Origin: a virus
Direction: 5' to 3' (one strand)
Virus record (IMG/VR): IMGVR_UViG_3300035703_000016
Coordinates: 64,001-128,000 of that record
Length of the DNA: 64,000 nucleotides
This document shows positions 2,159 to 62,088 of the stretch, piece after piece. The number at the start of each line of letters is the position of its first letter. Position 1 is the first letter of the stretch. A model generated the notes under the pieces. It had not been told where the DNA came from. It saw only the letters and a list, made by a program, of their open reading frames with translations, and did no database searches. A program made the position numbers and the translations under genes.

Positions 2159-3904
2159 TTAAGAAAATGTAGCTCCAGTTTGAGTAATATTATAAGATAG
2201 ATATATAAATTCACTAGTTCTAGTTGGCTGTAGATATATGCTTCCTACTAATTCATTTCTATCTATTACAGATGGAGTATTATTTGTATCATCCATTACA
2301 ACAGAAAAACTATATAATCCTTGTCTTTGTTGAACACTTGCTAAGTATGGATTTACTTGATTTAAAAATTTGTTTCTGGTAACTTGAGTATTTGGATCGA
2401 ATACTATAGTTTCTGCTATTTGACCAATATAATCTTTAAGTGCTATTAGTAATCTTCTTACACTAACTCTATCTAAAGCAGACGCTTTTTGTTGTAATGT
2501 TTTTTGTCCATATATAACTGTTCCAACTCCAGGAAAAGTAGCTATTGGGTTTACTTTAGCTTGATACAATGTATTTCTATCAGTAACAGATAATTTTCTT
2601 TCTGGTTGTAGAACAGTACTCATTCCACCTCTTGTAAAACCAGCTGGCGCATACCACTCTGCACTAATTTTATCATTATACTCATATACAGCTGGAACCA
2701 TTGTAGAAGCTGGAACAAAGTTTAATTTTCCTGTTTCTGCTGATTTAACTTGAACCCAAGGCCAATATGCTGCGCCGTAAGAATTATCGTAAGATTGGGC
2801 TGCAGTAACTACTGTTCCTATATTTTGTCCGTATCCAACTAAATCTATTACAGCTATATTATCGCCTCTTGTTTGAGATAAATTTAAAAGAGCTGTTATT
2901 TGAGAACTAGCGTTTTGAGAATTTATTCCAGGAGCATATATTGTATTGAAATTATATGCGTCTTTATTTCCTAAAAGGTTGATAGCTATATCATAATTTC
3001 CTGGTACAAGTCCTTGAATATTATTAGTTTGATCTCCTGATACTGTCGGTATATTTTCAAACATTTTCAAAGCAGCTACTCCAAATCCTCCATAGATAGC
3101 GCCAGTTGCTCCAGAAAAAGCTCCATTTATGGACCCAGATCCAACTAAAGGAATTGAGCTAGTATATTGAGATTGAGGTTGTCCGTAAGAATTTAAGTAA
3201 TTAGGAGTCGTAAGAGAAACAGATTTAACTCTTACATAATTACTATTATTTGAATAAGAACCTGTAGTTTGTAAATAGTAATCTCCAGTAGTTGGATCAG
3301 CTACAGCATTTTGAGTTTGATTTCCTATAACATACTCTATATAGTTATTTTGATTTGGATCTAAAGACAAATTAGTCCACGTCTCTAATATAGTTTTATT
3401 ATTTTCATAGTCATCTCCTCTACGAATAATCAAGCTAAAATAACCAGATCCAGTATCAGCAGAAGTAATCTCCCATCTTATATTTGCAGATGATCCTGAT
3501 GACAATGCTCCACTAACTGCGCTTCCAGAATTATTCATTATTACTCCAGATGAAAGAGTCTCTAAAGTAAATGCAGTAGTGCTTCCTGATGCTACAATAT
3601 TTGCAGTCGCTCCTGTATAAGAACCTGAGGCCACTCTTGTAACTAACAATGATTCTCCTCCTTGTTGAAAATATCCCAAAGCTGCAGTGCTTGTTAAATA
3701 TTCATAAGAAGTCCCTCCAGATATGAAAGTAGCTCCAAATATAGCCTTATATTGAGAATACGATGTAATTACTGTAGGGATATTTACTGGTCCTACTACA
3801 GTCGGTCCTATGATAGCAGCTCCAGCAGCAATTGGTCCCTGTGTTATTTGACTCTGGTCGTTCTCTATTGAAAATACGCCAGGACTTAAAAGTGTTTCAG
3901 CCAT
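2159..3904 (-). CDS. gp18: tail sheath protein (T4 gp18-like)
   Basis: LSPGVFSIEND N-terminus; YWPW, WYAPAGFTRG, GQKTLQ..ASALDRVSVRRLL and LQPTRTSEFI sheath motifs. Confidence 0.95.
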   Translation of the reverse strand: MAETLLSPGVFSIENDQSQITQGPIAAGAAIIGPTVVGPVNIPTVITSYSQYKAIFGATFISGGTSYEYLTSTAALGYFQQGGESLLVTRVASGSYTGATANIVASGSTTAFTLETLSSGVIMNNSGSAVSGALSSGSSANIRWEITSADTGSGYFSLIIRRGDDYENNKTILETWTNLSLDPNQNNYIEYVIGNQTQNAVADPTTGDYYLQTTGSYSNNSNYVRVKSVSLTTPNYLNSYGQPQSQYTSSIPLVGSGSINGAFSGATGAIYGGFGVAALKMFENIPTVSGDQTNNIQGLVPGNYDIAINLLGNKDAYNFNTIYAPGINSQNASSQITALLNLSQTRGDNIAVIDLVGYGQNIGTVVTAAQSYDNSYGAAYWPWVQVKSAETGKLNFVPASTMVPAVYEYNDKISAEWYAPAGFTRGGMSTVLQPERKLSVTDRNTLYQAKVNPIATFPGVGTVIYGQKTLQQKASALDRVSVRRLLIALKDYIGQIAETIVFDPNTQVTRNKFLNQVNPYLASVQQRQGLYSFSVVMDDTNNTPSVIDRNELVGSIYLQPTRTSEFIYLSYNITQTGATFS

Positions 3905-3926
3905 TTATGTTTTTATTTTTCTACTA

Positions 3927-3934
3927 ATAAATAT
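3927..3934 (-). promoter_or_regulatory. ATATTTAT late-promoter-like motif
   Basis: Upstream of the sheath ATG at 3904. Confidence 0.55.
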
Positions 3935-3944
3935 CATTAATTTG

Positions 3945-4181
3945 TTATGAAATTTCTCCTGTTTCTATATTTATCGTAACATTTCCATATTTTGAAGTTA
4001 TTTCTTCAAAAAGAGACTCTTCTCTTAATTTTAAAGAAACTATTTCTTTTTTTTGTTGTTCTATTTTTAATTCCAAAGATATCTTTTGAAATTCTAATTC
4101 TCCTAATTTAGATGCTATTTCTAAAGCGTCTTGTTTTATTAAATTTACTTTACTTAGCTCCTCTTGCGTTAATTTTGTCAT
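3945..4181 (-). CDS. small coiled-coil protein (possible fibre assembly chaperone)
   Basis: 78 aa heptad-rich, C-terminal KYG...INIETGEI; ATATTTATA motif at 4195-4203. Confidence 0.55.
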   Translation of the reverse strand: MTKLTQEELSKVNLIKQDALEIASKLGELEFQKISLELKIEQQKKEIVSLKLREESLFEEITSKYGNVTINIETGEIS

Positions 4182-4364: not shown

Positions 4365-5276
4365 TTAATATTGTATTTTTAAAGAAGGCATTTGAATATT
4401 ATATACAGACACAGGAACACTTGAGAAAACACTACCAGTGTTATACTGAGATAAATTCTGAGAACACGTTAATGGTAAGTCATAATTAGCTGTATTTAAA
4501 TTTGTAGAACCAGATCTTATTATTTGAAAACTTGCGCCATTAAACGATGATATCGTTAATCCCAAAGATGAAAAAAATCTCGAACCTAATACGGAATTAA
4601 ATCCATAATTTAAAGTCCCTTCTCCTCCACTATATGGAATAGTAGTTACAGTTCCTGATAATGACATAGCGACCCAATATACTTGATCTTTATATAAAGT
4701 TACTGCTGTAGATTGACTCATAAAATAATTATTATAAACTGTTGCGCTGGTACTTTTAGAAGTCTCTCCATGCATTATTCTATATTCTGGTAAGTTACTG
4801 CTTGTTCCATTTGTATATAATCCTATAAAACAACTAGAAGAATTAACTGTTCCTAAAAACATTACTGACATCGATGCGCATGTACATGTTTTCATTATTC
4901 TTATTGGAGAAAATAGAGCACCTCCAGTTAATACTCCAGTTCCAGTTGTCTTATTGGCTCCTGCTGTATATTGACCTAGATATATATTTGGATTTATTAA
5001 TCCAGTAGTCGAATTTATACCAACTCCTATATTTTGTAATACAGATGTTGAAATAGCTACACTAGAACTTATACTATTTATAGAATAAGAACTAGATATT
5101 GTCTGAGAAGTTGTAGTATATGAACTAGTTAAAGAATAATCTGAATATGATGATGTTAATGAAAAAGATGCAGTTCCTATTACAGTACTCTCTATTAAAC
5201 TCTCAGTCTGCAGAGACCCAGATATAGTAGAATTATCTTTTGATATAAATATAGTTTGTATAATTAATTTTTCCAT
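4365..5276 (-). CDS. tail fibre / receptor-binding-like virion protein, paralogue C
   Basis: Ser/Thr-rich TASF/TSSY stalk repeats plus a beta-rich C-terminal domain shared with 5280 and 6144. Confidence 0.6.
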   Translation of the reverse strand: MEKLIIQTIFISKDNSTISGSLQTESLIESTVIGTASFSLTSSYSDYSLTSSYTTTSQTISSSYSINSISSSVAISTSVLQNIGVGINSTTGLINPNIYLGQYTAGANKTTGTGVLTGGALFSPIRIMKTCTCASMSVMFLGTVNSSSCFIGLYTNGTSSNLPEYRIMHGETSKSTSATVYNNYFMSQSTAVTLYKDQVYWVAMSLSGTVTTIPYSGGEGTLNYGFNSVLGSRFFSSLGLTISSFNGASFQIIRSGSTNLNTANYDLPLTCSQNLSQYNTGSVFSSVPVSVYNIQMPSLKIQY

Positions 5277-5279
5277 AGT

Positions 5280-6143
5280 CTAGTTTACTATTAAATATGG
5301 TAAAACTGGAGTAGCTGTGCTTCTAGCTAAGAAAGAATAGTCTCCTGTATTTTGAGATAAAGTTTCAGGAGCGCTAGAATCGATATTTCCCGGGATAGGA
5401 TATACGTAATGAGTTATATTTTGTATATAAGAAGACGTATTTGGAACAGCAACTCCTAATATTGGATTATAAATTCTACCAGATGTATTAGCGACAACAT
5501 TACTAAAATATTTTGCGTAGATAGAACTTGCATTTTGTGAAGCAACTCCTATCCAATAAACCTCTCCTGCTTCTAATTGTATAGATGACGTAGGAGAAAA
5601 TGATCCAGTTACTGCTCCAAAAGTAGATCCGCTAATTGAAGTCTGATATATTTTATTTTCAGGAAGTAATTTTTCTGAATTTGTATAAACAAAAAAACTA
5701 GACGTGGCGTTTGCATTTGTATGTGAATATATAGAAATTAATCTATTTATAGTACAATTTTTATATATCTGAATAGGAGATAAAATAATACTCTGAGTTA
5801 TAACTCCAGCAGCAACTATCATTGAATTTCCATTTATAGGATACCAAACATTTGGATTAATTCCTATTGATCCTAAATCTGGATTTACCCATCCGTCATA
5901 ATTTGGATTTAGGACATAATCTGCTTCATAAGAATATGAACTTGTTTCAGATCTAAAAGAATAAGATGAGGAATCTATTAGAAATGTCAATGATGCCGTA
6001 GCTGAATTAATAGAATATGAAGATGTAACTGAAAAAGAAGCTGTTGTAGAACTTCCAGTTATTCCTGACGTAACTATTAATGATCCAGTTACTTCTAACA
6101 CGGATTTTGCAGTAAACCCTCTTTTTAATATGAAATCATTCAT
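5280..6143 (-). CDS. tail fibre / receptor-binding-like virion protein, paralogue B
   Basis: Same architecture as its neighbours: NPN, SP+.+.K.C, YTN...LPE, VYW, YNP+LG, SQN motifs. Confidence 0.6.
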   Translation of the reverse strand: MNDFILKRGFTAKSVLEVTGSLIVTSGITGSSTTASFSVTSSYSINSATASLTFLIDSSSYSFRSETSSYSYEADYVLNPNYDGWVNPDLGSIGINPNVWYPINGNSMIVAAGVITQSIILSPIQIYKNCTINRLISIYSHTNANATSSFFVYTNSEKLLPENKIYQTSISGSTFGAVTGSFSPTSSIQLEAGEVYWIGVASQNASSIYAKYFSNVVANTSGRIYNPILGVAVPNTSSYIQNITHYVYPIPGNIDSSAPETLSQNTGDYSFLARSTATPVLPYLIVN

Positions 6144-6986
6144 TTAATAACTTATTTGAACTAGTGGACCTAAATAGAGATTATCTATACTCCCGGTTTG
6201 TAAAGTGTATGTACTTATATTTTGAGAACATGTTAATGGAAGAGATAGATTACTTCCATTTGAAGCTGATGTTAATCCTGAAATATTATAAAAACCAGTT
6301 TGTGTAATTGTTCCAGCAACAGGAGTTACACCTAAAAACTGATTATAAAGTCCATTAGATAACCCACATATATTTAGTGTTAAATTATTATTTCCTACTA
6401 CAGCTGTCCAATATAATTTTCTTTTTTCTAAAATTATACTAGTAGAAGGTGTTATTCCAGAATATGCTAATGGAATAGTAGATGACGACATAAATCCAAG
6501 ATCTTGAATTAAAAATTGAGGACATGTTTGACCAGAATCTGAATATATCCCTAATCTGACTGTCGCCTCTACCCCAGTACTACCAAACATTATTCCCATT
6601 GTAGAGACTGCACATGTTTTTTCTACTGTAAATGGAGTAAAAAGTATTCTATCTAATCCTAAAGATCTGCTTATTGCTAGAGATCCAGTTGTTATAATTA
6701 TATTTGGAAATATATATCCTATTCCAACGGTCGGAGCATACGATGGATTTTTTAATATTGATGAAGTAATACTAATAGATGAGCTATCTGAAAAATTAGA
6801 TATAGATGATGTTACGGCATTTAATACAACAGAAGCTGTTAAGCTCGTTTGAGAAAAAGAAGAAGACATTACATAAGATGATGTTGTAATGTTTCCTATA
6901 ATATTATCTGTAGTAAATAATGATCCACATACTATAGAATTTCCTATTGATATAAACCCCTCTCTAGTTATAAATGAATTTGACAT
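6144..6986 (-). CDS. tail fibre / receptor-binding-like virion protein, paralogue A
   Basis: Same architecture; LPLTCSQN is identical to paralogue C. Confidence 0.6.
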   Translation of the reverse strand: MSNSFITREGFISIGNSIVCGSLFTTDNIIGNITTSSYVMSSSFSQTSLTASVVLNAVTSSISNFSDSSSISITSSILKNPSYAPTVGIGYIFPNIIITTGSLAISRSLGLDRILFTPFTVEKTCAVSTMGIMFGSTGVEATVRLGIYSDSGQTCPQFLIQDLGFMSSSTIPLAYSGITPSTSIILEKRKLYWTAVVGNNNLTLNICGLSNGLYNQFLGVTPVAGTITQTGFYNISGLTSASNGSNLSLPLTCSQNISTYTLQTGSIDNLYLGPLVQISY

Positions 6987-6997: not shown

Positions 6998-9094
6998 TTA
7001 TATAAAAGTAGTTTGAGTTTTTATTATCCAACCAGACCCTGGGGATGTAGATAGTACTACGTTAGATGAACTTAAAGATCCAGTTAGGACTAGTGAATTT
7101 GTATTTCCTATATCAGAAGTAGAAAAGTCTGTAAATCTTATGTCTACTCCACTCCAAACAGTCATAAATTCGCCTGCTCTAGAATTACTTCCGCTTAAGA
7201 CTACATATTTTACAAACATTGATCCATATGATCCAGTTGATCGAGTGAGTATAGTCGTTGAACCTGCTCCAGTAGTTACCAAAGAAGATGTTGTTAATAT
7301 AGATCCTATTAATAAATTATCATTGAAATTTACAGATCCAGTAACAATTAAGCTCCCAGTAATTATAGCAGATCCAGTAAAAGGAAATCCGCTTCCTCCA
7401 CTTCCGCCTCCATTAAGAGCATATGAAGCTGTAAGTGCGTAAGAAGAAGATAAACTATAAGATGAGCTAAGAACTGACATGGATGAAGTTACCGAAGTTA
7501 ATACGTACGGATTTAGCATCGATGCTGTTACTGAATTTAATACATAATCTGGAGCTAATGACGCAGTACTAGCAAATGATGAACTCAATACTGTCATAGA
7601 ACTAGTTAAAGCACTAGTAACGTACGGCGCTAATAATGAAGATGTTGCAACTGCTCTAGGAATAGAACCAGAATCTCCAACCCATATTGATCCAGATACT
7701 ATATTCGGTAGATTATAAGGACCTGGATTTAAAACGTACCCGGCTCCGTTAACCCCTGTTCTACTTATTGTTCCTAAATATTGAACTGAAACGTCTGCGC
7801 CTGTTGGTCTTATAGAAGTCCATTGTCCGCTAGAACTCAAGAATACGTCTGTTCCGGCTGGAAGAGCTCCAACATTTATAGAGTCTATTAAACCTAGCAC
7901 TATCCCAAGTCCATTTCCATTTGGAGATATTTCAGAGGCGGCAACTAAAGTAGCTGGTCTTCTATTTGGATTATATGCATCCGCTAAATACGCATCTGCT
8001 CTGTTTCCAGTATTCCCTTCTACATAAAGTCCAGCGCCTTTAGGAATTGTTACTAATTCTCTATTTTTTACTTCTTCATAGATTGTTTTTACATACTGAA
8101 ATGTGAGAGATCCAGAACCATCTGTTTGAATAAATGACCCAATACCGTTATCAACAACTGGATAATGTAATCCGCTTGCTGTTAATTGATTTCTTACTAC
8201 AAAAGTGTCTGCTGAAGAAGCTGTTGCTGCATGAGAAGCACTTATTATTGAATTTATTCCATATGGACCATGTATATTAGATGCAGTTATATATGATGAA
8301 GTTACAGAATATTCTGACCATGATGATGTACCGTGTAAACTTCCAGTAAATCCATGAGTAGATATAGCAGATCCAGATATTACTAATTCCCCATTTATTA
8401 TTCCACCTGAAAGTGGAAGATATGAACTAGTAAAATCACTTAAAAAAGCCACTTCTCCAGATCCATCTTGAAAAATAATTTCATTATTTAGATTTGTAGA
8501 CTGGCTAAATATTAAAGTAGTTTTTGCTATTTCTATTGACTCAGAATTTACTAAACTAGACTCTATAGTAGAATATCCATATACTATGCTTGATGTAGTA
8601 TTAGAGTTTATTTCTTTTTTCGAGATAAATGCTCCTGGAGAGATTATTGATTTTTTATCTCCTACTGACATTACCCATTCATTAAATGACATGGATACGT
8701 TTTGAGAAAAATCTAAATCATTAACTATTACTTGAGTTCCAATAAAAGTGTTTGATCCAGTCGTAGCTAAACTAGCAGATTTTTCTACAAATATTGGATC
8801 TACTTCTTGATAATAAGATGCTGTTGAAGAATAAGAAGAAGAATTTATTAATCCGTAAAAAGAACCAGTAGCATAAAATACAGAAGCTGAATAAAATACA
8901 GTAGGAATTCCACCAAAAACTCCATTATTATTAAATTGAACTTGAGTATCTGATCCTCCAGGATTACTACCACCTCCTCCACTTCCATTAAGAGCATACG
9001 AAGCTGTTATAGCCCAAGATGAAGTTCCGTATAGACTTCCCGTAAATGATCCACTAATTGGGAATCTTAACTGTTTTCCTTTTATTTGAGCCAT
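6998..9094 (-). CDS. tail fibre / whisker-like structural protein
   Basis: GGSDTQVQFN motif, Gly hinges, repeated TASYALNG, FTGSL.GTSSW and YV.S..TSSM.VLSSS units. Confidence 0.7.
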   Translation of the reverse strand: MAQIKGKQLRFPISGSFTGSLYGTSSWAITASYALNGSGGGGSNPGGSDTQVQFNNNGVFGGIPTVFYSASVFYATGSFYGLINSSSYSSTASYYQEVDPIFVEKSASLATTGSNTFIGTQVIVNDLDFSQNVSMSFNEWVMSVGDKKSIISPGAFISKKEINSNTTSSIVYGYSTIESSLVNSESIEIAKTTLIFSQSTNLNNEIIFQDGSGEVAFLSDFTSSYLPLSGGIINGELVISGSAISTHGFTGSLHGTSSWSEYSVTSSYITASNIHGPYGINSIISASHAATASSADTFVVRNQLTASGLHYPVVDNGIGSFIQTDGSGSLTFQYVKTIYEEVKNRELVTIPKGAGLYVEGNTGNRADAYLADAYNPNRRPATLVAASEISPNGNGLGIVLGLIDSINVGALPAGTDVFLSSSGQWTSIRPTGADVSVQYLGTISRTGVNGAGYVLNPGPYNLPNIVSGSIWVGDSGSIPRAVATSSLLAPYVTSALTSSMTVLSSSFASTASLAPDYVLNSVTASMLNPYVLTSVTSSMSVLSSSYSLSSSYALTASYALNGGGSGGSGFPFTGSAIITGSLIVTGSVNFNDNLLIGSILTTSSLVTTGAGSTTILTRSTGSYGSMFVKYVVLSGSNSRAGEFMTVWSGVDIRFTDFSTSDIGNTNSLVLTGSLSSSNVVLSTSPGSGWIIKTQTTFI

Positions 9095-10856: not shown

Positions 10857-12020
10857 TTATCCAGTGTATATGAGTAACGGCACTTTTGTTAAAGTATCGC
10901 TCTCAGATTGAGCCTCTGCAGCTTTTCTTTCTAATTGTGATTGTCTAGTCATTGACTCAAGCTCTTGTCTTAATCTTTCTTTTAACGCAATTTGCATATT
11001 CTGACCTTTAGAAATAAGATCCGTAGAATTTAAAGTTACTTGATCACCTGGCACTGGGACATTTGTATATTTTCCTCTTACAAGTCCTAATAGTTCAGAT
11101 GCTAGCGCCAATGTGTATTCATATATCCATTGTCTACCAGGTCTATTTATCTGAGAATAAATAATAGTTCCATACGGCACTTGAGAAGGATTAGCCACTA
11201 AGTTACTACTTCCAGAATACGGACTATTTATGCTTGGATCTCCCATTTCACTCTTCTTTGAATATTGAATCCAAAGATTTACTCCTTCTACTTCTGGTAT
11301 GGGGAATATCTTGAGCTTATTATTTATTAATTCAAAAGTAAATGCGCTTCTACGTACAGTATTAGACATTTCTATTTGTTGTATTCTTTGAATATCCCAA
11401 TAAACTGGAAATAGAGTAAAATTTAATCCTGGAGAATAAGATGACCAACCGAAATTTTCAGTAGCTCCTTGATAATTTATAGAACCTCCGATGTACGGAT
11501 CGTAATATTGATTTATTGCAGGAACTCCTTTATAATATACTTCTTGAACTACTATTCTATCTCCTGGTTGAATCCATCCACTAGAAGATCCAATCAATTG
11601 TAAATCATACGACTGTTGTCCTGGTATTAATGTTATTGAGCCTGAATACCAATTTACGTTTCCTCCTAAACCAGCAGGTGCTCCATAACTATCAGCTATT
11701 GTTATTATCGTATTAAGATTTGGAACTACTACTGTATTATTCAATAAAGACCCAGTTGGAGATCCTTCTAATCCTAAATAATTGTCTTTTATTTTAGATT
11801 GATATATTTCTAAAGCATATGTAGAGACAGCTTCCTCAAAGCATGCAAAAAATTGATCTTGTTGCAATTCAACCTCCATCATAGGATATCCTAGTTTTTT
11901 GGCACAATAATTTGCAACTTTTACAGACTCACTTACGAACTGAGAGTCATTATCATATAATCCAAAAGGAGTGTCTCCTGGAGAAAATGATGCGCTGCCT
12001 GGCCATGGAGAGTTATTCAT
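10857..12020 (-). CDS. head-tail adaptor / neck protein (T4 gp13-like)
   Basis: LGYP..EVEL, WI.EYTLALA.E.LG.VRGKY and C-terminal PL.IY.G motifs. Confidence 0.8.
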   Translation of the reverse strand: MNNSPWPGSASFSPGDTPFGLYDNDSQFVSESVKVANYCAKKLGYPMMEVELQQDQFFACFEEAVSTYALEIYQSKIKDNYLGLEGSPTGSLLNNTVVVPNLNTIITIADSYGAPAGLGGNVNWYSGSITLIPGQQSYDLQLIGSSSGWIQPGDRIVVQEVYYKGVPAINQYYDPYIGGSINYQGATENFGWSSYSPGLNFTLFPVYWDIQRIQQIEMSNTVRRSAFTFELINNKLKIFPIPEVEGVNLWIQYSKKSEMGDPSINSPYSGSSNLVANPSQVPYGTIIYSQINRPGRQWIYEYTLALASELLGLVRGKYTNVPVPGDQVTLNSTDLISKGQNMQIALKERLRQELESMTRQSQLERKAAEAQSESDTLTKVPLLIYTG

Positions 12021-12747: not shown

Positions 12748-13017
12748 TTAATAACCTGGGAAGTAAGATCCGCTATATAGTATTGAAAGACCTGCGGATT
12801 GAGTTACAGAAGTAATATTTCCGTAGATGCTCTGTCCTGCTCCAAATGTCGCTGTTATTTGACTTCCACTTAAATTTGAAAATTTTATTGTGGCTATTGT
12901 TCCAGAAGTAACAGAATAAAACCAATAAGAATCGCAAGCAGTACTTATTGATCCACTTAAAATTGAACCTCCTCCTAAACCATATGGATCTTTTAATCCG
13001 TCTACTATTTGTGGCAT
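12748..13017 (-). CDS. small beta-rich virion (decoration-like) protein
   Basis: 89 aa with three SGS motifs; ATATTTATA motif at 13034-13042. Confidence 0.45.
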   Translation of the reverse strand: MPQIVDGLKDPYGLGGGSILSGSISTACDSYWFYSVTSGTIATIKFSNLSGSQITATFGAGQSIYGNITSVTQSAGLSILYSGSYFPGY

Positions 13018-30102: not shown

Positions 30103-30113
30103 AATCAATTATT

Positions 30114-51729: not shown

Positions 51730-52821
51730 ATGGCAGTATACAAAATATTCGCGTCTGCAGATTCTACTCTATACTCTGCATATCCTACCCAAAATAGCGG
51801 ATTAGACGAAATTTTAGAAGTTGGATGCAAAAACGGCCAACTTCCAGAAGTAGTATTACAATCTAATTCAGCAGATGATATTAGAAGATCTGTAGTTACT
51901 TTTTCTAATGAAGATATAGTAAAAGCTATAAATTTAGTTGAATCGACTGGATCCTATGAAGTAAATTTAAGACTTTATTTTGCTAATGCAGAAAATTTGA
52001 ACACAACATACACTCTGTATGTGCATCCACTATCTCAAAGTTGGGATATGGGGACTGGAAAGTTTTTAGACACTCCTGAAATAAAAAATGGAGTATCTTG
52101 GAAAAATAAAACTCAGACTTTACCTTGGATAGATCCTACAAGTTACTTTAATACTGTTGGAGGAGGTACATGGAATAATTCTATTTCTTTATCTCAATCA
52201 TTTAATTATAAAGATTCAAAAGATTTAAACATAGGAAATTTATCTTCAATTGTTAATAGTTGGCATGACGACTTAAGTACTAACTATGGACTTATAGTAA
52301 AAATGTCATCTTCTATTGAACAAAATACTGGAAGTTATATAAATTTAAATTTTTTTAGTGTAGATACTCATACTATATATCCTCCAACATTAGAATTTAA
52401 ATGGGACGATAGTTCTTATTCTACTGGAAGTTTATCAATTGTTTCTAATAATAATGCAATAATTACATTAGGAAATAATCCAAATGTATTTAAGGATGAC
52501 ACTTCTAAATATATTTTTACTGTAAACGCAAGAGATAAATACCCTGCTAGAGCTTTTACAACATCTTCAATCTATACAGTAAATAAAGCTCTCCCAAGTT
52601 CATCATATTGGGCACTTCAAGATGTAAAAACAGAAGAATTAGTCATAGATTTTGATACTAATTACACTAAAATAAGTTGTAATGAAAATGGATCATATTT
52701 TCCTATTTATATAAATGGATTAGAGCCAGAAAGGTATTATAAAGTACTAATAAGAGTAGATTTACCAACTGGAGAAAGCATAGACATCGATGGAAATAAT
52801 ACTTTTAAAATTATAAGATAA
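51730..52821 (+). CDS. baseplate/virion structural protein (DNRLRE-like beta-sandwich)
   Basis: DSTLYS..P..NSGLDEILE, SWDMGTG and FFS.DTHTIYPP.LE.KWDD motifs. Confidence 0.6.
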   Translation: MAVYKIFASADSTLYSAYPTQNSGLDEILEVGCKNGQLPEVVLQSNSADDIRRSVVTFSNEDIVKAINLVESTGSYEVNLRLYFANAENLNTTYTLYVHPLSQSWDMGTGKFLDTPEIKNGVSWKNKTQTLPWIDPTSYFNTVGGGTWNNSISLSQSFNYKDSKDLNIGNLSSIVNSWHDDLSTNYGLIVKMSSSIEQNTGSYINLNFFSVDTHTIYPPTLEFKWDDSSYSTGSLSIVSNNNAIITLGNNPNVFKDDTSKYIFTVNARDKYPARAFTTSSIYTVNKALPSSSYWALQDVKTEELVIDFDTNYTKISCNENGSYFPIYINGLEPERYYKVLIRVDLPTGESIDIDGNNTFKIIR

Positions 52822-52822
52822 A

Positions 52823-53164
52823 ATGTCTGAAAATATAACGCTAATAAAAGAAGTTAGAGGACTTAATACTTATAAAAAAGTAGTAGATACTAGCTTTACT
52901 GAACTAGTTACACCAGTTCAAGAAATTTCAGCCCCTATAGTTACTGTTAGCGATTTTTTTAACTACTATGATCAACTATTTTTTGATATTCCTGCTACTG
53001 GAGTAACAAATTCTCATACGTACTTAATAGAAAAAAGTCAACAGTACGTAGGAGATGGCATAATTGATCAAGAAAAACAGGCTCTAATAGAAGAAATAAA
53101 TTCATTAAGAGAGCAATTAAATGATTTAAGCTCAACTTATCTTAACATCTCACAATTAACATAA
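52823..53164 (+). CDS. hypothetical baseplate-module protein
   Basis: FF..YD.LFFDIP..G..NSH.YL; C-terminal coiled coil. Confidence 0.55.
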   Translation: MSENITLIKEVRGLNTYKKVVDTSFTELVTPVQEISAPIVTVSDFFNYYDQLFFDIPATGVTNSHTYLIEKSQQYVGDGIIDQEKQALIEEINSLREQLNDLSSTYLNISQLT

Positions 53165-56100
53165 TGACAGAGATAGTAAATATATCATATGTAGGGTCTG
53201 GAATAGAAACTCAGACTTATACAGAAAAAGACAATTCTCTCATAACAAATAGTTTTATCTATACGCAATTTGGAGATCCAAAGGATAGCATAGAGTATTT
53301 TATTTATGACGGAACGGGAAATTTAATAGATAAAGTTTATAATTCAACGAGTTATAAACCAAATTCTTCTGTAAATTCATCTACAGATCTGTATGGGTCT
53401 ATCATTTTAGACCCTAAATCGGATTTACTATCTAGAGGATTTAATAGAGGAACTTTAGACATTCAATATAATTTTCTTAGAAATCTTTTTAATTCTTCTT
53501 ACGGGAAGTTTTATTGGATTAAAGAAATATCTCCCAGTAGAACAGAAATTAGATTAGCTTCTCAGAATATAAGCAATATCGATATTTTATCTGGATTTAA
53601 TCAATATCAATCATATATAGCTAGTTTAAATTACTATAATGATTTTTATCTTAATTTTGGAGATAATAAACATATAATAGCTGTCAACGTAGCGTATACA
53701 GAAGACGAATCTGGCGCTTATTTATTAATTAAGCTATATGAACCATTACCAAGTGATTTCGATGTCAAGGATCAGCTCTGGATATCAGAAAAGATAGCTG
53801 AATCTAGTAGATATACAGTAGATATTCAAATAGAAGCCTCTAATATAGTAGAACAAAATGTATTAAGAGGACCAAATTATAATATTAATTTAAATCAACA
53901 AATATCTCAAACAACTCCTTATTACTCTTATTCTGGATTAACCTCTACTTCTGTATCAAGCTCATTTCAAAAAATGATGAGTTATTATCAAGACAGAGCA
54001 ATGGAAATAAATGTTGATTATTCTGACTTTTCAAATTTTATACATTTTTCTAGCGTAAATTCTAGAATACAAAACTTTTATTCTAAAGTTTCTAATATAG
54101 AAAATTATAATAATATAATTATAAGTCAAAGTAGTATATTAGATACATCTGGAGTAGTTAGTAGTTCTATAGTTGGGTTAAGAAATGATATTAATTCAAT
54201 TATAACTAATTTTGATCCGTATGAGTATTATTTATACTTTGGTTCAGGTTCATATACTTGGCCAAAAAGTAACGCTGTTCAGCCATATTCTCTATACTCT
54301 GTTACATCTTCTGTTGCGATAAATTGGATGAATTCATCTCTCCAATCAGCATCTCTATTTGATAATACAAATAAAGATTTATTAACTAATATTATACCTC
54401 AATATATTTTAGATGATGAATCTAATGCTCCATACGTTAGTTTTGTAAACATGATAGGGCAGCATTTTGATAATATTTGGATATATTATAAAGATGTTAC
54501 TAATAGATTTCAAGCTACTAATAATCCATCTACTGGAATTTCATTAGACTTAGTAGCTGACGCTCTTATAGGACTTGGAAGTACGTTATACACTAATTCT
54601 AATTTATCAGATAATCTATATTATAGTCTTTTTGGAATAAATGAAGACGGATCTTTATTACCTCCTACTGGGTCGGAAAAAAATATAACATATATAACTT
54701 CAAGTTTAGAAACTCTAAGTCCAAAAACTATTCAAAGTGAGATATATAAAAGAATTTATCATAATATTCCCTATTTATATAAAACAAAGGGGACTAGAAA
54801 TTGTATAGATGCCATAGTTAATATTTTTGGGATTCCTAAATCTATACTGACCATTGACGAATTTGGGGGATATGAAAGAGATTTATATACTGGTCTAGAT
54901 TCTGCATATAATACTAAAATAACAGGATCTACGGCTGTAGACGAAGTTAGTGGATCTACTCTAAATCCTAATGTGACTATTCAATATTACAATAATACAG
55001 ATAGAATTAATTCTAATAATTTAGAATTTGGATTTTCTCCTGCTAACTCTATAAATAATTTTATATCTTCATCTAGAGGATTTATAAATATTGATCAGTT
55101 AATAGGAGATCCATCATACCAATACTCATCTTCTTATTTAGGATTACAAGAGTACCAGAATTCGTTTTTTACTGGGTCTCAGGTTCATGACATATATGAA
55201 TACATTAGACTTTTAAAATACTTTGATAATTCTTTATTTAAAATGATAAAGGATTACGTTCCAGCAAGATCGAATTTATCAAATGGATTAATAGTAAAAT
55301 CTCACGTTTTAGAGAGAAATAGATATGAAAGACATGAGCCAATTGTAGAAAATGACTTTAATTATTCTCAATCTCTAGAGACTTCTGTAATTTCTGCTAC
55401 TGATGCTCCAGTCTTATTATTTCCTACATCTTATACGACTGAAACTCAATATACAGTAGTTAGTCCATACATAGCAACAGGATCAAATAATACATATGGA
55501 CCGGTTAGAATTAATAATAATTATTCTTGGGAAAAATACACCGGTGAATTTGGAGGATCTAAAATAGATGCGGCATACGGTGAATTTAGTCAATTAGAAA
55601 GATCGTCTATTACAAGTCCATGGACATCTTCTGTAGCGTCTACACAATCAATATTCACATTTTATAATAATGGAGCCTTTATTAATAATGTTATTAACTC
55701 TCAAGAATCATCTAAATTTATAAATGCGGAATATAGTTATGGAATTGATTCTCCAATAAACTTTGCTAGTATAGTTTCTCAATCATCTTGTGAAAATTGT
55801 CACAGAATAGATTGTTTAACATATCAATTATATAATGGAGATACTTCACCTTCTCTATATAGCTATATTGACTGTAACAACTTATATTATGATAGTTCTT
55901 CTATAAATCCAACTTCAAGTGTTTATATATGCGTTAAACCTGGAACTTTATTAACTTCATCATTTATTACGTCTAGTATTTTAGGAAATTGTGGAGCTCT
56001 AAGAGTAGATACTCCATATGGTTCTTGCTATAAAACAACGATAACTAATTTTAATACATCAGATAGTTTAGATATAAATTGGACTAATTGTAATGGATCT

Positions 56101-58395
56101 ACTGGATCAGCAACAATCCCAGCTGGAGCCGGAGTAGAGTCAGCTCAACAGTGCGTTAGAAGAGGGTCTATGCAAATATCAAGACTTGCAATATCTCCAA
56201 CATATAGCGTATCTGAGTATAATGAATGCGGAGTATTTTCAAACAGCCCTTCATGTTATTCTTTTACTGGTTCTTGGAGTGCAACTGGAGGTGGGGAAAC
56301 TGGGTCATATAAAGACTGTTATACGGGAGAGACTATATTTCAAATATTTCCTGACGGAGGTCCAACAACTGTTAGAGTATCATGTGCACAGACTGGGAGT
56401 TTTAGAGTATTTACAAATAACGGATCAACTATAGTGTCATCTCTATCAAATGTGATTTTATGTGCGAATCCTGGAGAAATTATCCCAGATCCTGAAAATT
56501 CAAGATGTATAAAACTAGATGCAGTTTCTGTTGGAGTTGGGTATTATACATTAGGATATGATAAATGTAATGGAGAATCGGTATTACTTTCTGGAAGTTC
56601 TATTGGAGAATCATTAGTATTAAATGATTGCGTAAGACTAAATTCTATAGTATCTTCTAATGTAGTTGCAATAATAACAGGGTCATATTGCGGATACTAT
56701 TCTAAAGAAAAAGAGTATACTGGGTCTTTAGACTATGCTGAAATTCAAGATTATAACTATAATAGAACAAGTGCTGTACATTCTAAATATGCTGGAGCAA
56801 AGTACTCAAATCAAGACACTAGTCAAGATTGGAAATTTGGAGCTTCTTACAATCCAAGAGATTACTACGTAGATTATACAGGACTATTCACTGAAATTCA
56901 ATCTAGTTCATACGATCCTTCTCAAATGATAGTTAAATTGCCATATCTTGCAAATATATCAGGAGGAATTCAAGAATTAAATTTACAAAATGAAAATTTA
57001 GTATACTTTCAGAGCATTTATAAGCCTGGAACAAACGTTACGTTAAAACAATTTAATTCGACTCAATACTCTAATCAAAAATATTTAGATAAATCATTTA
57101 AGATAGTAGAAAGCGGATTTTCTTATAGACCATATTTTTATAGAAAAATGGGACAACAGTATGAATGTTATGATTTATCTATAGGAGGAGATTCATTCTT
57201 GAGTGGATCAAAAGCTCTAAGAGAGACAAGTATAAAAAGCGGCGTTGAGAATGATATCGTCAATTCAATTTTTTATCCGGATCCTTTTGGTCTTGCACGA
57301 TCATTCTCAACTATTCCTTCAGGATCTTCATTATCTGGAAGTTGGAATTGGTATAATACTAGTTTAGATATTGGAGCTTCGACATCTAGTAGTTTAGCTA
57401 CAAATATAATAAGTGATCCTAATAATCTACTTACCGCATATTCTAGTGGAAGTGGAGATTTATCGGGATCATTTTATACTGTTCCATTTGACGGAGTTTA
57501 TAGTATTACTGCTGGGTTTCCATGGAATATGAGAATAGTGGAAGTCCCAACACTAACTGCAAATTTTAGAGTAAAAGTAGAAATATTAAGAAATGCTACT
57601 ACTTCTTCCGGATTTTTAGAAGGAGAAATATTGGCAACTAAGACAGATACTGTCTCAAGCGGAGATGCTGGGGTTGTATATGGCGGATTTACTACGGCCC
57701 AAATACTAAACACCCCATTACAATTTGGACAAACGATCTGGACTAAAGTATCTATACAGGCTGGGTTTAATGATGTTCAAGTTTTTGGAATGGGAGCTTA
57801 TTTTGAAGCAGAGAGTTCTAAGTTTAATGGCTCATATTGTATTAATCCAAGTTCTGCTATTAATAAATTATTTGATACTTCTAGTTTTTTACCTGGAAAT
57901 AATGTACTTACTATTAGTGAAAATATGAATCCATTTTTTTTAGAAAATGTAACATTCATTCCATCATATACATCCGGATCTATTACTGAGTCTCCGTTAT
58001 ATGAAACTTTTGGCGAAGTAGACTATGGAACTAAAATAGAAGAAGGAGACTATTTATATCTATATTACAGCGGAATTAGCGTAGGATATTCAGTAGGTGG
58101 AATGTCAACTCCTATATTAAGTAGAATAACTTCTATTACTACTGGAAGCGTAACTAGTAGTTTTACAGTATATCCAAATTTACCTAGTTATATAACTAAT
58201 GGAAATTTAAACTCGTATGATAAATTAGTATTTACAAAAAGAATTCCAGACGAAACTACAATTACTCTTAGAGGAAAAAAGAATGCTGGAAAAACATCTT
58301 ATGGATTTGCAATACCTCAAGATATAAATCCAGAGATTCTAAAAAATGCAAATACTCTTCAATCAACTATACAATCTCAAATATTAAACTATTAA
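53164..58395 (+). CDS. large baseplate wedge protein (gp7 / tail protein I-like core) with Cys-rich repeat insert
   Basis: MIGQHFD.IW, RIYHNIPYLYKTKGT...FGIP and FKMIKDYVPARS motifs; 1743 aa. Confidence 0.7.
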   Translation: MTEIVNISYVGSGIETQTYTEKDNSLITNSFIYTQFGDPKDSIEYFIYDGTGNLIDKVYNSTSYKPNSSVNSSTDLYGSIILDPKSDLLSRGFNRGTLDIQYNFLRNLFNSSYGKFYWIKEISPSRTEIRLASQNISNIDILSGFNQYQSYIASLNYYNDFYLNFGDNKHIIAVNVAYTEDESGAYLLIKLYEPLPSDFDVKDQLWISEKIAESSRYTVDIQIEASNIVEQNVLRGPNYNINLNQQISQTTPYYSYSGLTSTSVSSSFQKMMSYYQDRAMEINVDYSDFSNFIHFSSVNSRIQNFYSKVSNIENYNNIIISQSSILDTSGVVSSSIVGLRNDINSIITNFDPYEYYLYFGSGSYTWPKSNAVQPYSLYSVTSSVAINWMNSSLQSASLFDNTNKDLLTNIIPQYILDDESNAPYVSFVNMIGQHFDNIWIYYKDVTNRFQATNNPSTGISLDLVADALIGLGSTLYTNSNLSDNLYYSLFGINEDGSLLPPTGSEKNITYITSSLETLSPKTIQSEIYKRIYHNIPYLYKTKGTRNCIDAIVNIFGIPKSILTIDEFGGYERDLYTGLDSAYNTKITGSTAVDEVSGSTLNPNVTIQYYNNTDRINSNNLEFGFSPANSINNFISSSRGFINIDQLIGDPSYQYSSSYLGLQEYQNSFFTGSQVHDIYEYIRLLKYFDNSLFKMIKDYVPARSNLSNGLIVKSHVLERNRYERHEPIVENDFNYSQSLETSVISATDAPVLLFPTSYTTETQYTVVSPYIATGSNNTYGPVRINNNYSWEKYTGEFGGSKIDAAYGEFSQLERSSITSPWTSSVASTQSIFTFYNNGAFINNVINSQESSKFINAEYSYGIDSPINFASIVSQSSCENCHRIDCLTYQLYNGDTSPSLYSYIDCNNLYYDSSSINPTSSVYICVKPGTLLTSSFITSSILGNCGALRVDTPYGSCYKTTITNFNTSDSLDINWTNCNGSTGSATIPAGAGVESAQQCVRRGSMQISRLAISPTYSVSEYNECGVFSNSPSCYSFTGSWSATGGGETGSYKDCYTGETIFQIFPDGGPTTVRVSCAQTGSFRVFTNNGSTIVSSLSNVILCANPGEIIPDPENSRCIKLDAVSVGVGYYTLGYDKCNGESVLLSGSSIGESLVLNDCVRLNSIVSSNVVAIITGSYCGYYSKEKEYTGSLDYAEIQDYNYNRTSAVHSKYAGAKYSNQDTSQDWKFGASYNPRDYYVDYTGLFTEIQSSSYDPSQMIVKLPYLANISGGIQELNLQNENLVYFQSIYKPGTNVTLKQFNSTQYSNQKYLDKSFKIVESGFSYRPYFYRKMGQQYECYDLSIGGDSFLSGSKALRETSIKSGVENDIVNSIFYPDPFGLARSFSTIPSGSSLSGSWNWYNTSLDIGASTSSSLATNIISDPNNLLTAYSSGSGDLSGSFYTVPFDGVYSITAGFPWNMRIVEVPTLTANFRVKVEILRNATTSSGFLEGEILATKTDTVSSGDAGVVYGGFTTAQILNTPLQFGQTIWTKVSIQAGFNDVQVFGMGAYFEAESSKFNGSYCINPSSAINKLFDTSSFLPGNNVLTISENMNPFFLENVTFIPSYTSGSITESPLYETFGEVDYGTKIEEGDYLYLYYSGISVGYSVGGMSTPILSRITSITTGSVTSSFTVYPNLPSYITNGNLNSYDKLVFTKRIPDETTITLRGKKNAGKTSYGFAIPQDINPEILKNANTLQSTIQSQILNY
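55813..56694 (+). repeat. four degenerate Cys-rich protein modules (about 65-75 aa each)
   Basis: Pattern C-x~20-[YW]xxC-x~20-C-x3-[GN][ST]-x~15-C repeated four times. Confidence 0.6.
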
Positions 58396-59106: not shown

Positions 59107-60165
59107 ATGTCATTTACAACACTAGACGCTTCAGATTTCGTAATAAGTTCAGATTCAGTCGTAGCTCCAGCTTGGAGTACTGGAAATCCTACTTTAACAG
59201 GAGCTAACATGATAACAGCCTCTACTATATCCCCGGCGCCTGAATTTTATATAAATGTTTATGATACAGCTCTAACTGGATCAACAGCCGAAATACAATT
59301 TTCTATCGCATATGGTAATGCTTTAGGATCTGGTTCATCTTTATATAATGATTTAGTTCCAGGACTTAGTCCTTCAAGAACTACATACGGACAGTATAGA
59401 AATCTTGTATACGCAGATGAAACAAAGCTATTTAATTTTGGAACAGGAAATACTTCTTCTCCAGATATTATAGCTATTAATATAGATAGAAATAGATACA
59501 AAGAGAGCTTATTTCCGGGGACATTAAAATTAGTTTTATCTTCTGGAAGTAATGCAATAACTATTACAGATGACAGTGTCTACACAACTAATAATAATCT
59601 TACTGTTAATTTTGGAGATTGCGGAAGAATATTTAATTTAATATCTGGATCTTACGGATTACCAACATCTACAACAATAGGATCTTCAGCCGCTGGATAT
59701 ACTCCATCAGGATCTTATGGATTTTTCTTACCTGATATAGGCACTATAATATTAAATCCAAGAGCGTTAGCTCTACCTGCTGCTTCAGGAGGAATAGGGA
59801 TGGTAATAGATACATCTTCATACGCTCAAGGCACTTTAGCTTCATCAACAAATAATAATGAAATATTTAAAGTTGTAAAAAATGGACAATGCTTTCAATT
59901 AAATTCTCAAGAGACTGTATCTGCTAATTATGTATTTGTAAGAGTAAAAAATGGAGACTATAATTACAGTAATAACCCTTCATTTTTATCTGGATCTAGC
60001 GGACAATTAATATATCCTAGTCTTGTAAATAATCCACAAACATTTCCAACAACAGTGGGACTTTATAATAATAATGGCGATTTACTAGCTGTTGCTAAGA
60101 TGAGTAGACCTATGTTAAAAGACTTCACTAGAGAATCTTTGCTAAGAATAAAAATTGATTGGTAA
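59107..60165 (+). CDS. virion structural protein (baseplate/fibre attachment)
   Basis: YGQYRNL, RYKE.L.PG and TTVGLYN..GDLLAVAK motifs. Confidence 0.6.
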   Translation: MSFTTLDASDFVISSDSVVAPAWSTGNPTLTGANMITASTISPAPEFYINVYDTALTGSTAEIQFSIAYGNALGSGSSLYNDLVPGLSPSRTTYGQYRNLVYADETKLFNFGTGNTSSPDIIAINIDRNRYKESLFPGTLKLVLSSGSNAITITDDSVYTTNNNLTVNFGDCGRIFNLISGSYGLPTSTTIGSSAAGYTPSGSYGFFLPDIGTIILNPRALALPAASGGIGMVIDTSSYAQGTLASSTNNNEIFKVVKNGQCFQLNSQETVSANYVFVRVKNGDYNYSNNPSFLSGSSGQLIYPSLVNNPQTFPTTVGLYNNNGDLLAVAKMSRPMLKDFTRESLLRIKIDW

Positions 60166-60180
60166 AAATAAAATATTTAC

Positions 60181-61776
60181 ATGGGTCGTTGCCTAAATAC
60201 TCTTAAAGGATCAGACGTTACTATTACACCTATAAAACTGAAGTATTCTAATCAAATAGAAAGTTCGTCTTTAAGTTCAAATAATATAACATTAACAGTG
60301 GCAAGTAATCAAAATTTTGATTACAATAATCCAAGTTATGACGATAATTTTCTTTTATATAGATCTATTCAAGGACTATATTATATGAATTTTATTTCAG
60401 GATCTTTAATAGGCTCTGCAAGTGCGTATCAGTGGAATCCTCAATCAACAGCGGCAAGTGGTACATTTGACGACGATTATAGATATTTTCCTACAGAATC
60501 AGGTTCAAAAATTTTAGTTATTTCTATTCCAAGAGCTAAATATGGAGAAAATATCGCAAGATCATCATTTAGTATATCTTCTTCTGGGTATAACATAGTC
60601 GATGACGGAAATGGAAACTTAGTTGATTTAAATTCTGGAAGTATTCATGTAGGAAATTTACTTTATAATCAAGGAATAGGAATAATAACAAATTCAGAGT
60701 ACATCTACTCTTTAGTTCCTATTCCAGTATGCGATGTTCCTATTATCATTGATCCAATACCCGTAGGATCAAATATTGCTACTCCTAGATGGGAAGTACC
60801 AAATCCGCCAACTATTTATCAATATGCATTATATACTTCTAGTATTAGTCCAATAGGATCAGGAACGGAAATTACTTCTATTTTAAACACTGGGTCTATA
60901 AATTTTACTGGACTATCTTCTAGTACAGAATACTATTTTTATCTAAGAACTAAATGTAGTTCTACTAGTTTTAGTAATTGGGTATCAAAGTCATTTACTA
61001 CTAGAGTTGGACTAGTTCCTCTTAGAGATGGACTGATCATGGAATTAGAATCATTTACTGGATCTATTTCATCAAGTGGATATATTACTCAATGGGACGA
61101 TATGTCTGGATTTGGAAATAATGTATATAGAGATTCATCTCAATACCAGCCGGTATATGTATCTTCTTATTTTAACAATCAACCTGGAATATTTTTTAGT
61201 GCATCTGGAGCGCCAAATCTGACAGGGTCTGTTCTTAGGACTAGTGGAAATCTTATAGGATTAAGCGGAAGTACAGGAGTAACAGCTTTTATAGTTTCTA
61301 GACCGTCTAGTAGTCTCACAAGCGGACCAGTAATTGAATACGCTAAATTAGGAACATCAACAGATTCTTATTTAAATAGCACAGGTAGTTTTCAATATTA
61401 TCAAGTATTTACTGGAGGAGGTATTGTAACAGCTGGAGCAGAAACACGAGGGAACGTTGGTATATCTGGAGTTGAAGATTCTACAGTTAGAACTCAATCT
61501 CAATTTTATATAGAATCAGTTATCATAGACTACACACTATCTAGTAAAGAGGTAACAGTTTATACAAATAATTCTACTGGAAGTTTAACTTGGTCTGAAG
61601 CAAATAATTCTGGATCATTTGAATCTTATCCTCTTGCTATAAGTTCTGGAGTTAATAATGGAAGATGGCAAGGTTGGCAAGGTTATATAGGAGCTGTTTT
61701 ATTGTATAATAGAGCATTAAATGAATCAGAAAGAACACAAGTTTATAACTATTTATCATCATCATATTTACAATAA
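60181..61776 (+). CDS. virion protein with FN3-like and LamG/concanavalin-like domains (receptor-binding candidate)
   Basis: FTGLSSSTEYYFYLRTKC (FN3); ITQWDDMSGFGN ... GYIGAVLLYNRAL...E..QVYNYL (LamG). Confidence 0.7.
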   Translation: MGRCLNTLKGSDVTITPIKLKYSNQIESSSLSSNNITLTVASNQNFDYNNPSYDDNFLLYRSIQGLYYMNFISGSLIGSASAYQWNPQSTAASGTFDDDYRYFPTESGSKILVISIPRAKYGENIARSSFSISSSGYNIVDDGNGNLVDLNSGSIHVGNLLYNQGIGIITNSEYIYSLVPIPVCDVPIIIDPIPVGSNIATPRWEVPNPPTIYQYALYTSSISPIGSGTEITSILNTGSINFTGLSSSTEYYFYLRTKCSSTSFSNWVSKSFTTRVGLVPLRDGLIMELESFTGSISSSGYITQWDDMSGFGNNVYRDSSQYQPVYVSSYFNNQPGIFFSASGAPNLTGSVLRTSGNLIGLSGSTGVTAFIVSRPSSSLTSGPVIEYAKLGTSTDSYLNSTGSFQYYQVFTGGGIVTAGAETRGNVGISGVEDSTVRTQSQFYIESVIIDYTLSSKEVTVYTNNSTGSLTWSEANNSGSFESYPLAISSGVNNGRWQGWQGYIGAVLLYNRALNESERTQVYNYLSSSYLQ

Positions 61777-61779
61777 ACT

Positions 61780-62088
61780 ATGCCTTCATATTCGCCATTT
61801 TCAATGTCATTCCAATCTGAAACAACGATTTATCAGAACGAGATAAGATGTCATGTAAATGAAAATGATTTTAATTATACAATAAACCCGTCAGCTATAA
61901 AATCAGGTTCTGGAATATTACCTGGAACTTTAAATGATAATGTATCAGGATCAGATTTTACTCCTTTTGCTACTTCAATAGGATTATATAATTCTCAAGG
62001 GGATCTTTTAGTAGTAGGAAAATTTGGAACTCCATATCCTATACCATCACACATAGACATAACCTTTGTTGTAAAATACGACACATAA
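61780..62088 (+). CDS. virion structural protein, paralogue of the C-terminal domain of 59107..60165
   Basis: NENDFNY..NPS...TSIGLYN..GDLLVVGK. Confidence 0.6.
   Translation: MPSYSPFSMSFQSETTIYQNEIRCHVNENDFNYTINPSAIKSGSGILPGTLNDNVSGSDFTPFATSIGLYNSQGDLLVVGKFGTPYPIPSHIDITFVVKYDT

Follow-up and report, generated by a model that had tools for sequence, protein, structure and literature searches.

To our knowledge, bacteriophages are generally held to be non-glycosylated, apart from a few actinobacterial exceptions. In the mycobacteriophage Che8, phage glycosyltransferases (GTs) add O-linked glycans to the capsid in the host cytoplasm, producing a glycan shield, according to two reports (PMC13445384, PMC11256854) that describe the work of Freeman et al. 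2023; we found no report of a virion-wide short sequon in Che8-type phages. Two further systems invite comparison. GtfA and GtfB, which prime serine-rich repeat proteins, are adjacent GT-B proteins that act as a cytoplasmic complex on Ser/Thr in an alternating-serine context, GtfB being a non-catalytic chaperone (PMC6973325), and chloroviruses glycosylate their capsids autonomously in the cytoplasm, with N-linked glycans and a GDP-mannose-binding protein, B736L (B736L/A546L, PDB 3OY2; PMC9614988). Here we describe a short motif, [ST]-G-S and its variants, as a candidate sequon on the head, neck, sheath, baseplate and fibres of a phage whose virion genes lie in the 64,000-nucleotide stretch of DNA analysed here (the window), bases 64001–128000 of the complete 158,434-bp virus record IMGVR_UViG_3300035703_000016, which has direct terminal repeats. 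Window coordinates are used for virion genes, and positions prefixed G000 are coordinates of the whole genome record. The genome shares with Che8-type phages the possession of GT genes (two GT2 and two GT4 Pfam matches, with methyltransferases); unlike those temperate actinobacterial phages, it belongs to a large Far-T4-like myovirus lineage in which virion glycosylation is predicted from genes and motif.

The closest match to the capsid protein is that of Flavobacterium phage vB_FspM_immuto_2-6A (Immutovirus; immuto hereafter), at 52 % identity, followed by the uncultured 484-kb phage LR756508 and the phage Mel-JY01 (46 % each) and the Rhodothermus phage RM378 (NC_004735; 34 %). By sequence comparison the T4 gp23-like capsid, gp20-like portal and gp18-like sheath are nearer to immuto and RM378 than to the Tevenvirinae, which places the phage among the Far-T4-like myoviruses. 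The descriptions of the Far-T4 phages, including RM378 and immuto (PMC4360716, PMC7198788), mention neither the motif nor virion glycosylation. This phage and immuto share the order of their head, tail and GT loci, and immuto carries both the motif and the three GT genes discussed below; the present phage is nevertheless a distinct relative with a different variable cassette. A Bacteroidota host is indicated, because ORF 27463–30108 bears a CHU_C type IX secretion signal.

When all 224 ORFs were counted without any selection of proteins, SGS occurred 55 times against 25 expected and TGS 42 times against 17. Both exceeded the maximum of 200 shuffles, both ranked among the top five over-represented tripeptides of this proteome, and the excess was unchanged under local shuffles of 12 or 30 residues. 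A conditioned null (a Markov ratio that keeps both dipeptides and removes repeated contexts, and is stricter than the composition-only, or simple, null) still left 83 [ST]GS against 51 (z 4.4). The composition-corrected comparison of virion and other proteins that a sequence-only reading of the window had called for also holds, with 85 [ST]GS in 19 virion ORFs against 20.2±4.3 expected (z 15; about four times chance) and 12 against 22 in the remaining 205 ORFs. Because the virion set was picked with the motif counts in view, it is the unselected tests, namely the whole-proteome shuffles and the conditioned null, that carry weight.

The motif has a direction. The sequence [ST]GT was found 7 times against 13 expected, [^ST]GS 51 against 66 and [ST]G[^S] 106 against 122. 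At the middle position only G, S and A are enriched, G more so than S or A (together 174 vs 66), which bears out the related SAS, TSS and SSS variants noted previously; the fuller form of the motif is a directional [ST]-[GAS]-S. Serine codons at the motif sites are drawn from both TCN and AGY. The motif is therefore a protein-level feature, and a DNA-level motif or repeat is ruled out as its cause, as is an artefact of composition or low complexity by the per-protein, the local (12- and 30-residue) and the dipeptide-conditioned nulls. The N-x-[ST] sequon showed no enrichment in the virion proteins. The carriers of the motif, with one secreted protein that serves as an internal control, are as follows.

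2159..3904, (-) strand: tail sheath protein, 581 aa (phrog_23, E 5e-70).
3131..3628, (-) strand: N-terminal part of the sheath, residues 93–258, in which 7 [ST]GS and 1 TSS were counted.
4365..6986, (-) strand: three Ser-rich, fibre-associated, paralogue-like ORFs of 303, 287 and 280 aa, a role suggested by position and composition.
6998..9094, (-) strand: fibre-like protein, 698 aa, 15 [ST]GS (3.9 expected), a 37 % match to the putative tail fibre-like protein of immuto.
10857..12020, (-) strand: head-tail adaptor (gp13-like neck protein; phrog_211), 3 [ST]GS.
12748..13017, (-) strand: 89-aa protein, 3 SGS, a probable decoration protein.
14717..16360, (-) strand: T4 gp23-like major capsid protein, 547 aa (match to T4 gp23 in the PDB at E 1e-35).
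15551..15883, (-) strand: capsid insertion, residues 160–270, at the position of the T4 gp23 I-domain, six [ST]-[GAS]-S.
51730..52821, (+) strand: baseplate-region protein, 363 aa, 3 TGS; the immuto orthologue also has 3.
53164..58395, (+) strand: large baseplate-region protein, 1743 aa, 20 [ST]GS (3.8 expected).
59107..60165, (+) strand: baseplate-region protein, 352 aa, 6 [ST]GS (0.85 expected).
60181..61776, (+) strand: virion structural protein, 531 aa (phrog_10356), 10 [ST]GS (2.0 expected).
61780..62088, (+) strand: baseplate-region protein, 102 aa, 2 SGS.
27463..30108, (-) strand: secreted type IX secretion system (T9SS) type-B cargo, the internal control and not a carrier, with a signal-peptide-like N-terminus and Ig_7, PKD and CHU_C domains.

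All the hand counts of [ST]GS per protein in the sequence-only reading match our recount, among them those of the 89-aa protein (3), the fibre-like protein at 6998 (15) and the proteins at 59107 (6) and 60181 (10), and the zero for each of the terminase, the portal, the 1042-aa SbcCD-like ORF and the 815-aa enzyme. Further sites had been reported from the neck proteins and from 51730, 53164 and 61780; these stand for the adaptor at 10857 (3) and for the three baseplate-region proteins (3, 20 and 2); the neighbouring proteins at 9097 and 10353 have 1 and 0. The three fibre-associated ORFs (303, 287 and 280 aa) contain 3, 4 and 2 [ST]GS plus many TAS, TSS and SSS, and many relatives have small motif-rich ORFs close to their capsid gene. 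Among the buried virion proteins, the tube, tape measure, portal and gp6-like wedge have 0–1 sites each, as do the protease and the scaffold.

In the capsid protein the six sites (167 SGS, 176 SGS, 189 SAS, 204 TSS, 222 SGS and 248 SGS) fall between two blocks aligned with T4 gp23*, and the four SGS all lie within residues 167–250, as first counted. In T4, the insertion (I) domain protrudes from the surface of the capsid (PMC9546572). The insertion of the present phage was modelled as a beta domain of its own (pLDDT 70–86), with most sites at or near strand ends. As the full-length model is poor outside the insertion (mean pLDDT 58), with a fold search that only re-found T4 gp23, we infer the exposure of the sites from the I-domain position. 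The seven [ST]GS of the sheath lie at residues 93–256, within the earlier range of about 92–260, in an N-terminal part that we take to be outward-facing from knowledge of T4 gp18; the Pfam core domains (316–574) have no sites. Mapping on structures, as had been suggested, thus puts the sites in outer insertion domains, and their exterior placement is well supported at the level of domains, not of single residues.

The motif recurs across about 150 relatives and in the cultured phage immuto, the Ser/Thr/Gly (S/T/G)-rich proteins of which hold 99 [ST]GS against 28 expected. Because related sequences are not independent, totals per protein family, taken from 80 related viral contigs, show spread rather than significance: [ST]GS was found 166 times against 56 expected in the capsids, 31 against 5 in the sheaths, 371 against 94 in the fibres and, among 51 homologues, 123 against 17 in the neck family, and the motif-poor families were the terminase (0 vs 14), portal (1 vs 13) and protease (3 vs 11). 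A second sample of 80 more distant contigs gave the same pattern, with the exceptions of contigs L094 and L166. In 63 aligned capsids the insertion holds 135 [ST]GS against 20 expected and the remainder of the protein 5 against 25, and each capsid has between two and eight sites of the wider motif. Across homologues, site 248 is TGS in 15, SGS in 13, TAS in 13 and SAS in 5, and site 204 is TSS in 16, TAS in 11, TGS in 5 and SAS in 4; minor sites arise and disappear, with no enrichment of [ST][GAS]T (75 vs 83). Residue changes at fixed capsid sites stay within the rule, as they do for a sequon. Together, these data show a motif that is directional, under selection and set at the protein level, in the exterior domains of unrelated virion proteins.

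The general O-glycosylation of Bacteroidota is periplasmic and host-encoded and uses the sequon D-[ST]-[AILVMT]. It has in common with the present motif a three-residue Ser/Thr sequon and the same host phylum, and differs in sequence, compartment and origin; the virion proteins show no excess of it (24 vs 26), and the proposal that the new motif is distinct from it was therefore sound. The host sequon is enriched instead in the phage's secreted T9SS cargo, with 14 dispersed D-[ST]-[AILVMT] (3.1 expected) as against 2 [ST]GS (1.4 expected), in a beta-rich protein whose S/T/G content (0.29) equals that of the sheath. As the cargo shows this excess, the approach picks up an established sequon in a protein open to the host machinery; the new motif is limited to proteins that assemble in the cytoplasm.

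A search for GT genes in the rest of the genome, another of the earlier suggestions, located a cluster outside the window, at G000 22.3–31.7 kb. It comprises GT4a (480 aa), GT4b (432 aa) and two Pfam GT2 genes of 203 aa (GT2-203) and 256 aa, along with a galactosyltransferase-like ORF, a TylF O-methyltransferase, a weak methyltransferase match and ORFs of unknown function. GT4a, GT4b and GT2-203 lie at G000 30300–31742, 28447–29745 and 27312–27923, all on the (-) strand. In 77 of 80 loci GT4b has GT4a upstream of it, and GT2-203 is found in 70 of the 80. All three genes (the trio) occur in each of the ten relatives that are at least 90 % complete, and in immuto and Mel-JY01; since four of these ten genomes were reached through GT4b itself, only six are unbiased for presence of the trio. 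The Mel-JY01 GT4a is split into two ORFs. Genes downstream of the trio vary, with further transferases and methyltransferases, and in immuto an aminotransferase, an epimerase and other GT genes. These comparisons show that the lineage has GT4a-GT4b-GT2 as a core locus, with a variable cassette after it.

The model of GT4b has a confident GT-B fold (pLDDT 92), and its closest structure is chlorovirus B736L (Foldseek E 6e-16, Z 31.5, rmsd 3.0, 353 residues aligned), followed by small-molecule GT4s (Z ~28). GT4a and GT4b are homologous (probability 97.7), and most copies of both contain the donor-binding motif E-x7-E; with the double Rossmann fold of the GT4b model, this identifies a GT4-like retaining GT-B. 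The predicted GT4a:GT4b complex scored 0.89, where the best of three controls scored 0.21 (the mark for this score is reached by 58 of 80 solved pairs and 2 of 110 mismatched pairs), with contacts agreeing in at least 96 %, partner pLDDT of at least 88 and the closest predicted contacts between GT4a 461–466 and GT4b 265–270. The two proteins are accordingly predicted to form a heterodimer, a score to which likeness to solved GT-B oligomers may contribute.

This architecture resembles that of GtfA/GtfB in its two adjacent GT-B proteins, here a predicted complex, and in its combination of conserved priming genes with variable elongating GTs. The differences are that both phage proteins keep E-x7-E, so that a non-catalytic chaperone like GtfB is not seen, and that the phage targets are dispersed tripeptides in folded domains rather than long repeats, with no accessory Sec. 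No Pfam match to a DUF1975-type domain was found in the phage GTs, and GtfA aligns over 331 residues with Z 19.7 and rmsd 3.7; the phage pair is not a member of the GtfA/GtfB type. Chlorovirus B736L is the best PDB sequence match of both GT4a and GT4b as well as the best structural match of GT4b, although identity to it is only 13 % and chlorovirus glycans are N-linked.

Co-occurrence of enzymes and motif, which the sequence-only reading had proposed to examine across relatives, was found in most of those tested, the trio tracking the motif. The conditioned [ST]GS ratio is 1.46–1.67 in phages of the clade, and outside their S/T/G-rich proteins the motif falls to 0.35–0.55x in five trio-bearing phages, as against ~1.0–1.2x in the trio-less LR756508, G027 and G029 (conditioned null). 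Such depletion in non-exterior proteins is expected if every site of this kind would be open to a cytoplasmic enzyme. LR756508 keeps a distant GT4a (33 %) and has neither GT4b nor GT2-203; its orthologous capsid, neck and two sheaths carry 0–1 sites each, and its conditioned ratio is 0.99. This phage, immuto and RM378 have 17 reciprocal-best-hit genes in common, and LR756508 keeps all of them except GT2-203. GT4b is lacking in phages T4, P-SSM2, G027 and G029, whose conditioned ratios (0.25, 0.98, 1.10 and 0.92) show no excess. RM378 retains GT2-203 and GT4a (26 %), the latter with a diverged GT4b-like gene beside it (20 %, profile E 9e-7), and its S/T/G-rich proteins contain 36 [ST]GS against 11 and 208 T-x-S against 77, the middle residue being relaxed. 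Here too there is a direction (S-x-T 77 vs 77, T-x-T 65 vs 64, and T-x-S in other proteins 80 vs 79).

Some observations on these relatives deserve mention in their own right. Rm378p014 is likely to be the diverged GT4b, and about 12 S/T-rich unannotated RM378 proteins with a T-x-S excess may be exterior virion proteins. At ~305–325 kb, after its GT4a, LR756508 has a large glycan cluster whose ORFs we take, by eye, to be GDP-fucose synthase-, GDP-mannose dehydratase-, NeuA/NeuB-, GT25- and sulfotransferase-like. We also looked for further relatives that lack the motif. With the LR756508 capsid as query, only one close fragment of this kind appeared among viral contigs (L094, 19 % complete), and the matches in metagenomes were of at most 58 % identity; the LR756508 GT4a yielded nothing, and the RM378 query only distant capsids of ~380 aa.

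The motif is real and selected, and probably a glycosylation sequon. As judged from the sequences, the likelier account is that the phage encodes a cytoplasmic O-glycosylation system that recognises [ST]-[G/A/S]-S as its sequon and coats the virion exterior. Of the original proposal of a modification sequon coating the virion, the enrichment, the outer domains and the GT genes are in place, with the modification itself a candidate. On this reading, GT4a and GT4b would act as a heterodimer, as do GtfA and GtfB, and the pair and/or GT2-203 would prime the Ser/Thr hydroxyl of the tripeptide with a nucleotide sugar, in the cytoplasm, before or during particle assembly. The variable cassette would elongate and methylate the glycan. 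With six sites per capsid subunit, the outcome would be several thousand glycans per particle, a coat that may serve in shielding, stability or receptor interaction.

Several findings weigh against this account. On the simple null LR756508 keeps a residual excess of 1.4–2x, and trio-less phages reach 1.1–1.7x. The capsid and sheath of RM378 have few sites. In structure, GT4b is much closer to B736L or the small-molecule GT4s than to GtfA, which glycosylates protein (Z 19.7), and a GT-B fold names no acceptor. Motif and trio are both traits of one large clade; as the contrasting lineages (RM378, LR756508 and L094) are basal in the tree with weak support (0.61), the contrast amounts to only one or two independent events. 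The plainest misfit is G021 (311 kb; capsid 42 %, terminase 26 %), which has the whole trio and an [ST]GS ratio of only 1.09. It shows an excess of T-x-T, TPT and TGT instead; [ST]-G-T is found 157 times against 91 on the simple null, with a conditioned ratio of only 1.16 (TGT 1.73 in a post hoc subset), so that an [ST]-G-T variant is a lead only. G021 may represent a third sequon variant or a true uncoupling of trio and motif. Its tail-region proteins (186368–210396 and 237555–256688) have an excess of TGT, TAT and TPT, and its 2703-aa protein has a mucin-like Thr-Pro repeat.

The motif might instead reflect structural preference, as a small-residue turn or Ser/Thr-capped beta-hairpin in beta-rich outer domains that is spread by module shuffling and has nothing to do with the trio. 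Such a preference would suit the strand-end position of most sites in the capsid model, the mild generic excess in S/T/G-rich phage proteins (P-SSM2 fibres 30 vs 18; G027 77 vs 48) and the GTs of G021 without the motif. However, the generic excess is gone under the conditioned null in P-SSM2, G027, G029 and T4, whereas that of the clade stays; the motif is strictly directional, occurs in unrelated folds and is underrepresented in proteins that are not exterior; it is missing from the Ig/PKD cargo of this phage, which is itself beta-rich; and the capsid, neck and sheath orthologues of LR756508 do without it. We regard this explanation as improbable. To a real modification made by a cytoplasmic enzyme of the Bacteroidota host, or to a non-sugar adduct (phosphate, phosphoglycerol, methyl or acyl), with the trio acting elsewhere, for example on host lipopolysaccharide or capsule, we would give some weight, while thinking it unlikely. 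A shared host enzyme is conceivable because the hosts that are cultured or can be inferred are all related to Bacteroidota (immuto, RM378, CHU_C cargo). Phage tail proteins have been reported to undergo host-dependent modification (MepM methylation, PMC13445384), and in G021 trio and motif are uncoupled. Yet the motif shifts (T-x-S in RM378) or fades (LR756508) in step with phage GT4b/GT2, and the known host O-glycosylation sequon is a different one that the virion proteins do not favour.

Glycosylation of phage DNA by the trio, through hydroxymethylcytosine and with some other cause for the motif, seems very improbable to us. The genome does encode a thymidylate-synthase-family protein that likely makes hydroxymethyl-cytosine, and phage GT-A/GT-B enzymes that modify DNA are described in a preprint (bioRxiv 10.1101/2023.12.21.572611). 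The explanation fits poorly, because a close orthologue of the hydroxymethylase-like enzyme, searched for with this genome's enzyme as the only query, occurs in just one of the ten complete relatives, all of which have the trio; it is absent from immuto, Mel-JY01 and RM378, in each of which the trio is present, and immuto carries 7-deazaguanine genes instead. T4 alpha-glucosyltransferase also ranks low among the structural matches of GT4b (Z 19.3). A 598-aa thymidylate-synthase-family fusion lies at G000 34645–36441, near a dCMP deaminase, a dUTPase-like ORF, DUF6378 and an unknown 307-aa ORF, and this neighbourhood is likely a DNA-modification module, patchy among relatives (1/10). For the 307-aa ORF (G000 37656–38579), considered as a T4 beta-glucosyltransferase-like candidate, there was no PDB or Pfam match.

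The genome has other features of note. The prohead protease (17498–19207) and portal (21675–24968) genes, both on the (-) strand, contain one intein each (Pfam Intein_splicing), that of the portal with a weak HNH match; most relatives have short forms of both proteins. Directly after the capsid gene, a 521-aa zinc-finger/Vsr-like endonuclease ORF (13054–14619, (-) strand) has several homologues in the structural region of LR756508, consistent with a mobile homing endonuclease. The 815-aa ORF (36120–38567, (-) strand) fuses a cytidylyltransferase-like domain to DUF6267 and is also found in Mel-JY01 (41 %). A start of the form MIKL...E is common to several unrelated ORFs (1000–1389, 26635–27446 and 30114–32492, all on the (-) strand), and MIK and TPE are likewise among the most enriched tripeptides of the proteome. 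'Microcystis phage Mel-JY01' (PP395634.1) shares synteny with this Bacteroidota-type lineage, so that the cyanobacterial host assigned to it may be worth checking.

A literature search with limited reach into subscription journals found no paper describing the [ST]GS motif. We tentatively propose, at a little short of an even chance, that Bacteroidota myoviruses of a large and widespread lineage possess a sequon-directed code of their own for cytoplasmic O-glycosylation. A GT4a/GT4b heterodimer would read hydroxyl-x-hydroxyl, re-tuned by lineage ([ST]-small-S here, T-x-S in RM378 and possibly T-x-T in G021), with sites gained and lost as in the glycan shield of a eukaryotic virus and a swappable cassette setting the type of glycan. 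The reading can be put to a direct test, as the system is present in two cultured phages, immuto and RM378, for which different sequons are predicted. If it is true, an abundant group of freshwater and marine phages would be densely coated with glycans of their own making, placed by a sequence code that can be read. Such a coat would matter for host range, for the stability of the particle and for its grazing or decay in water, and the finding would bring to light a new cytoplasmic O-glycosyltransferase with a three-residue tag, useful in glycoengineering.

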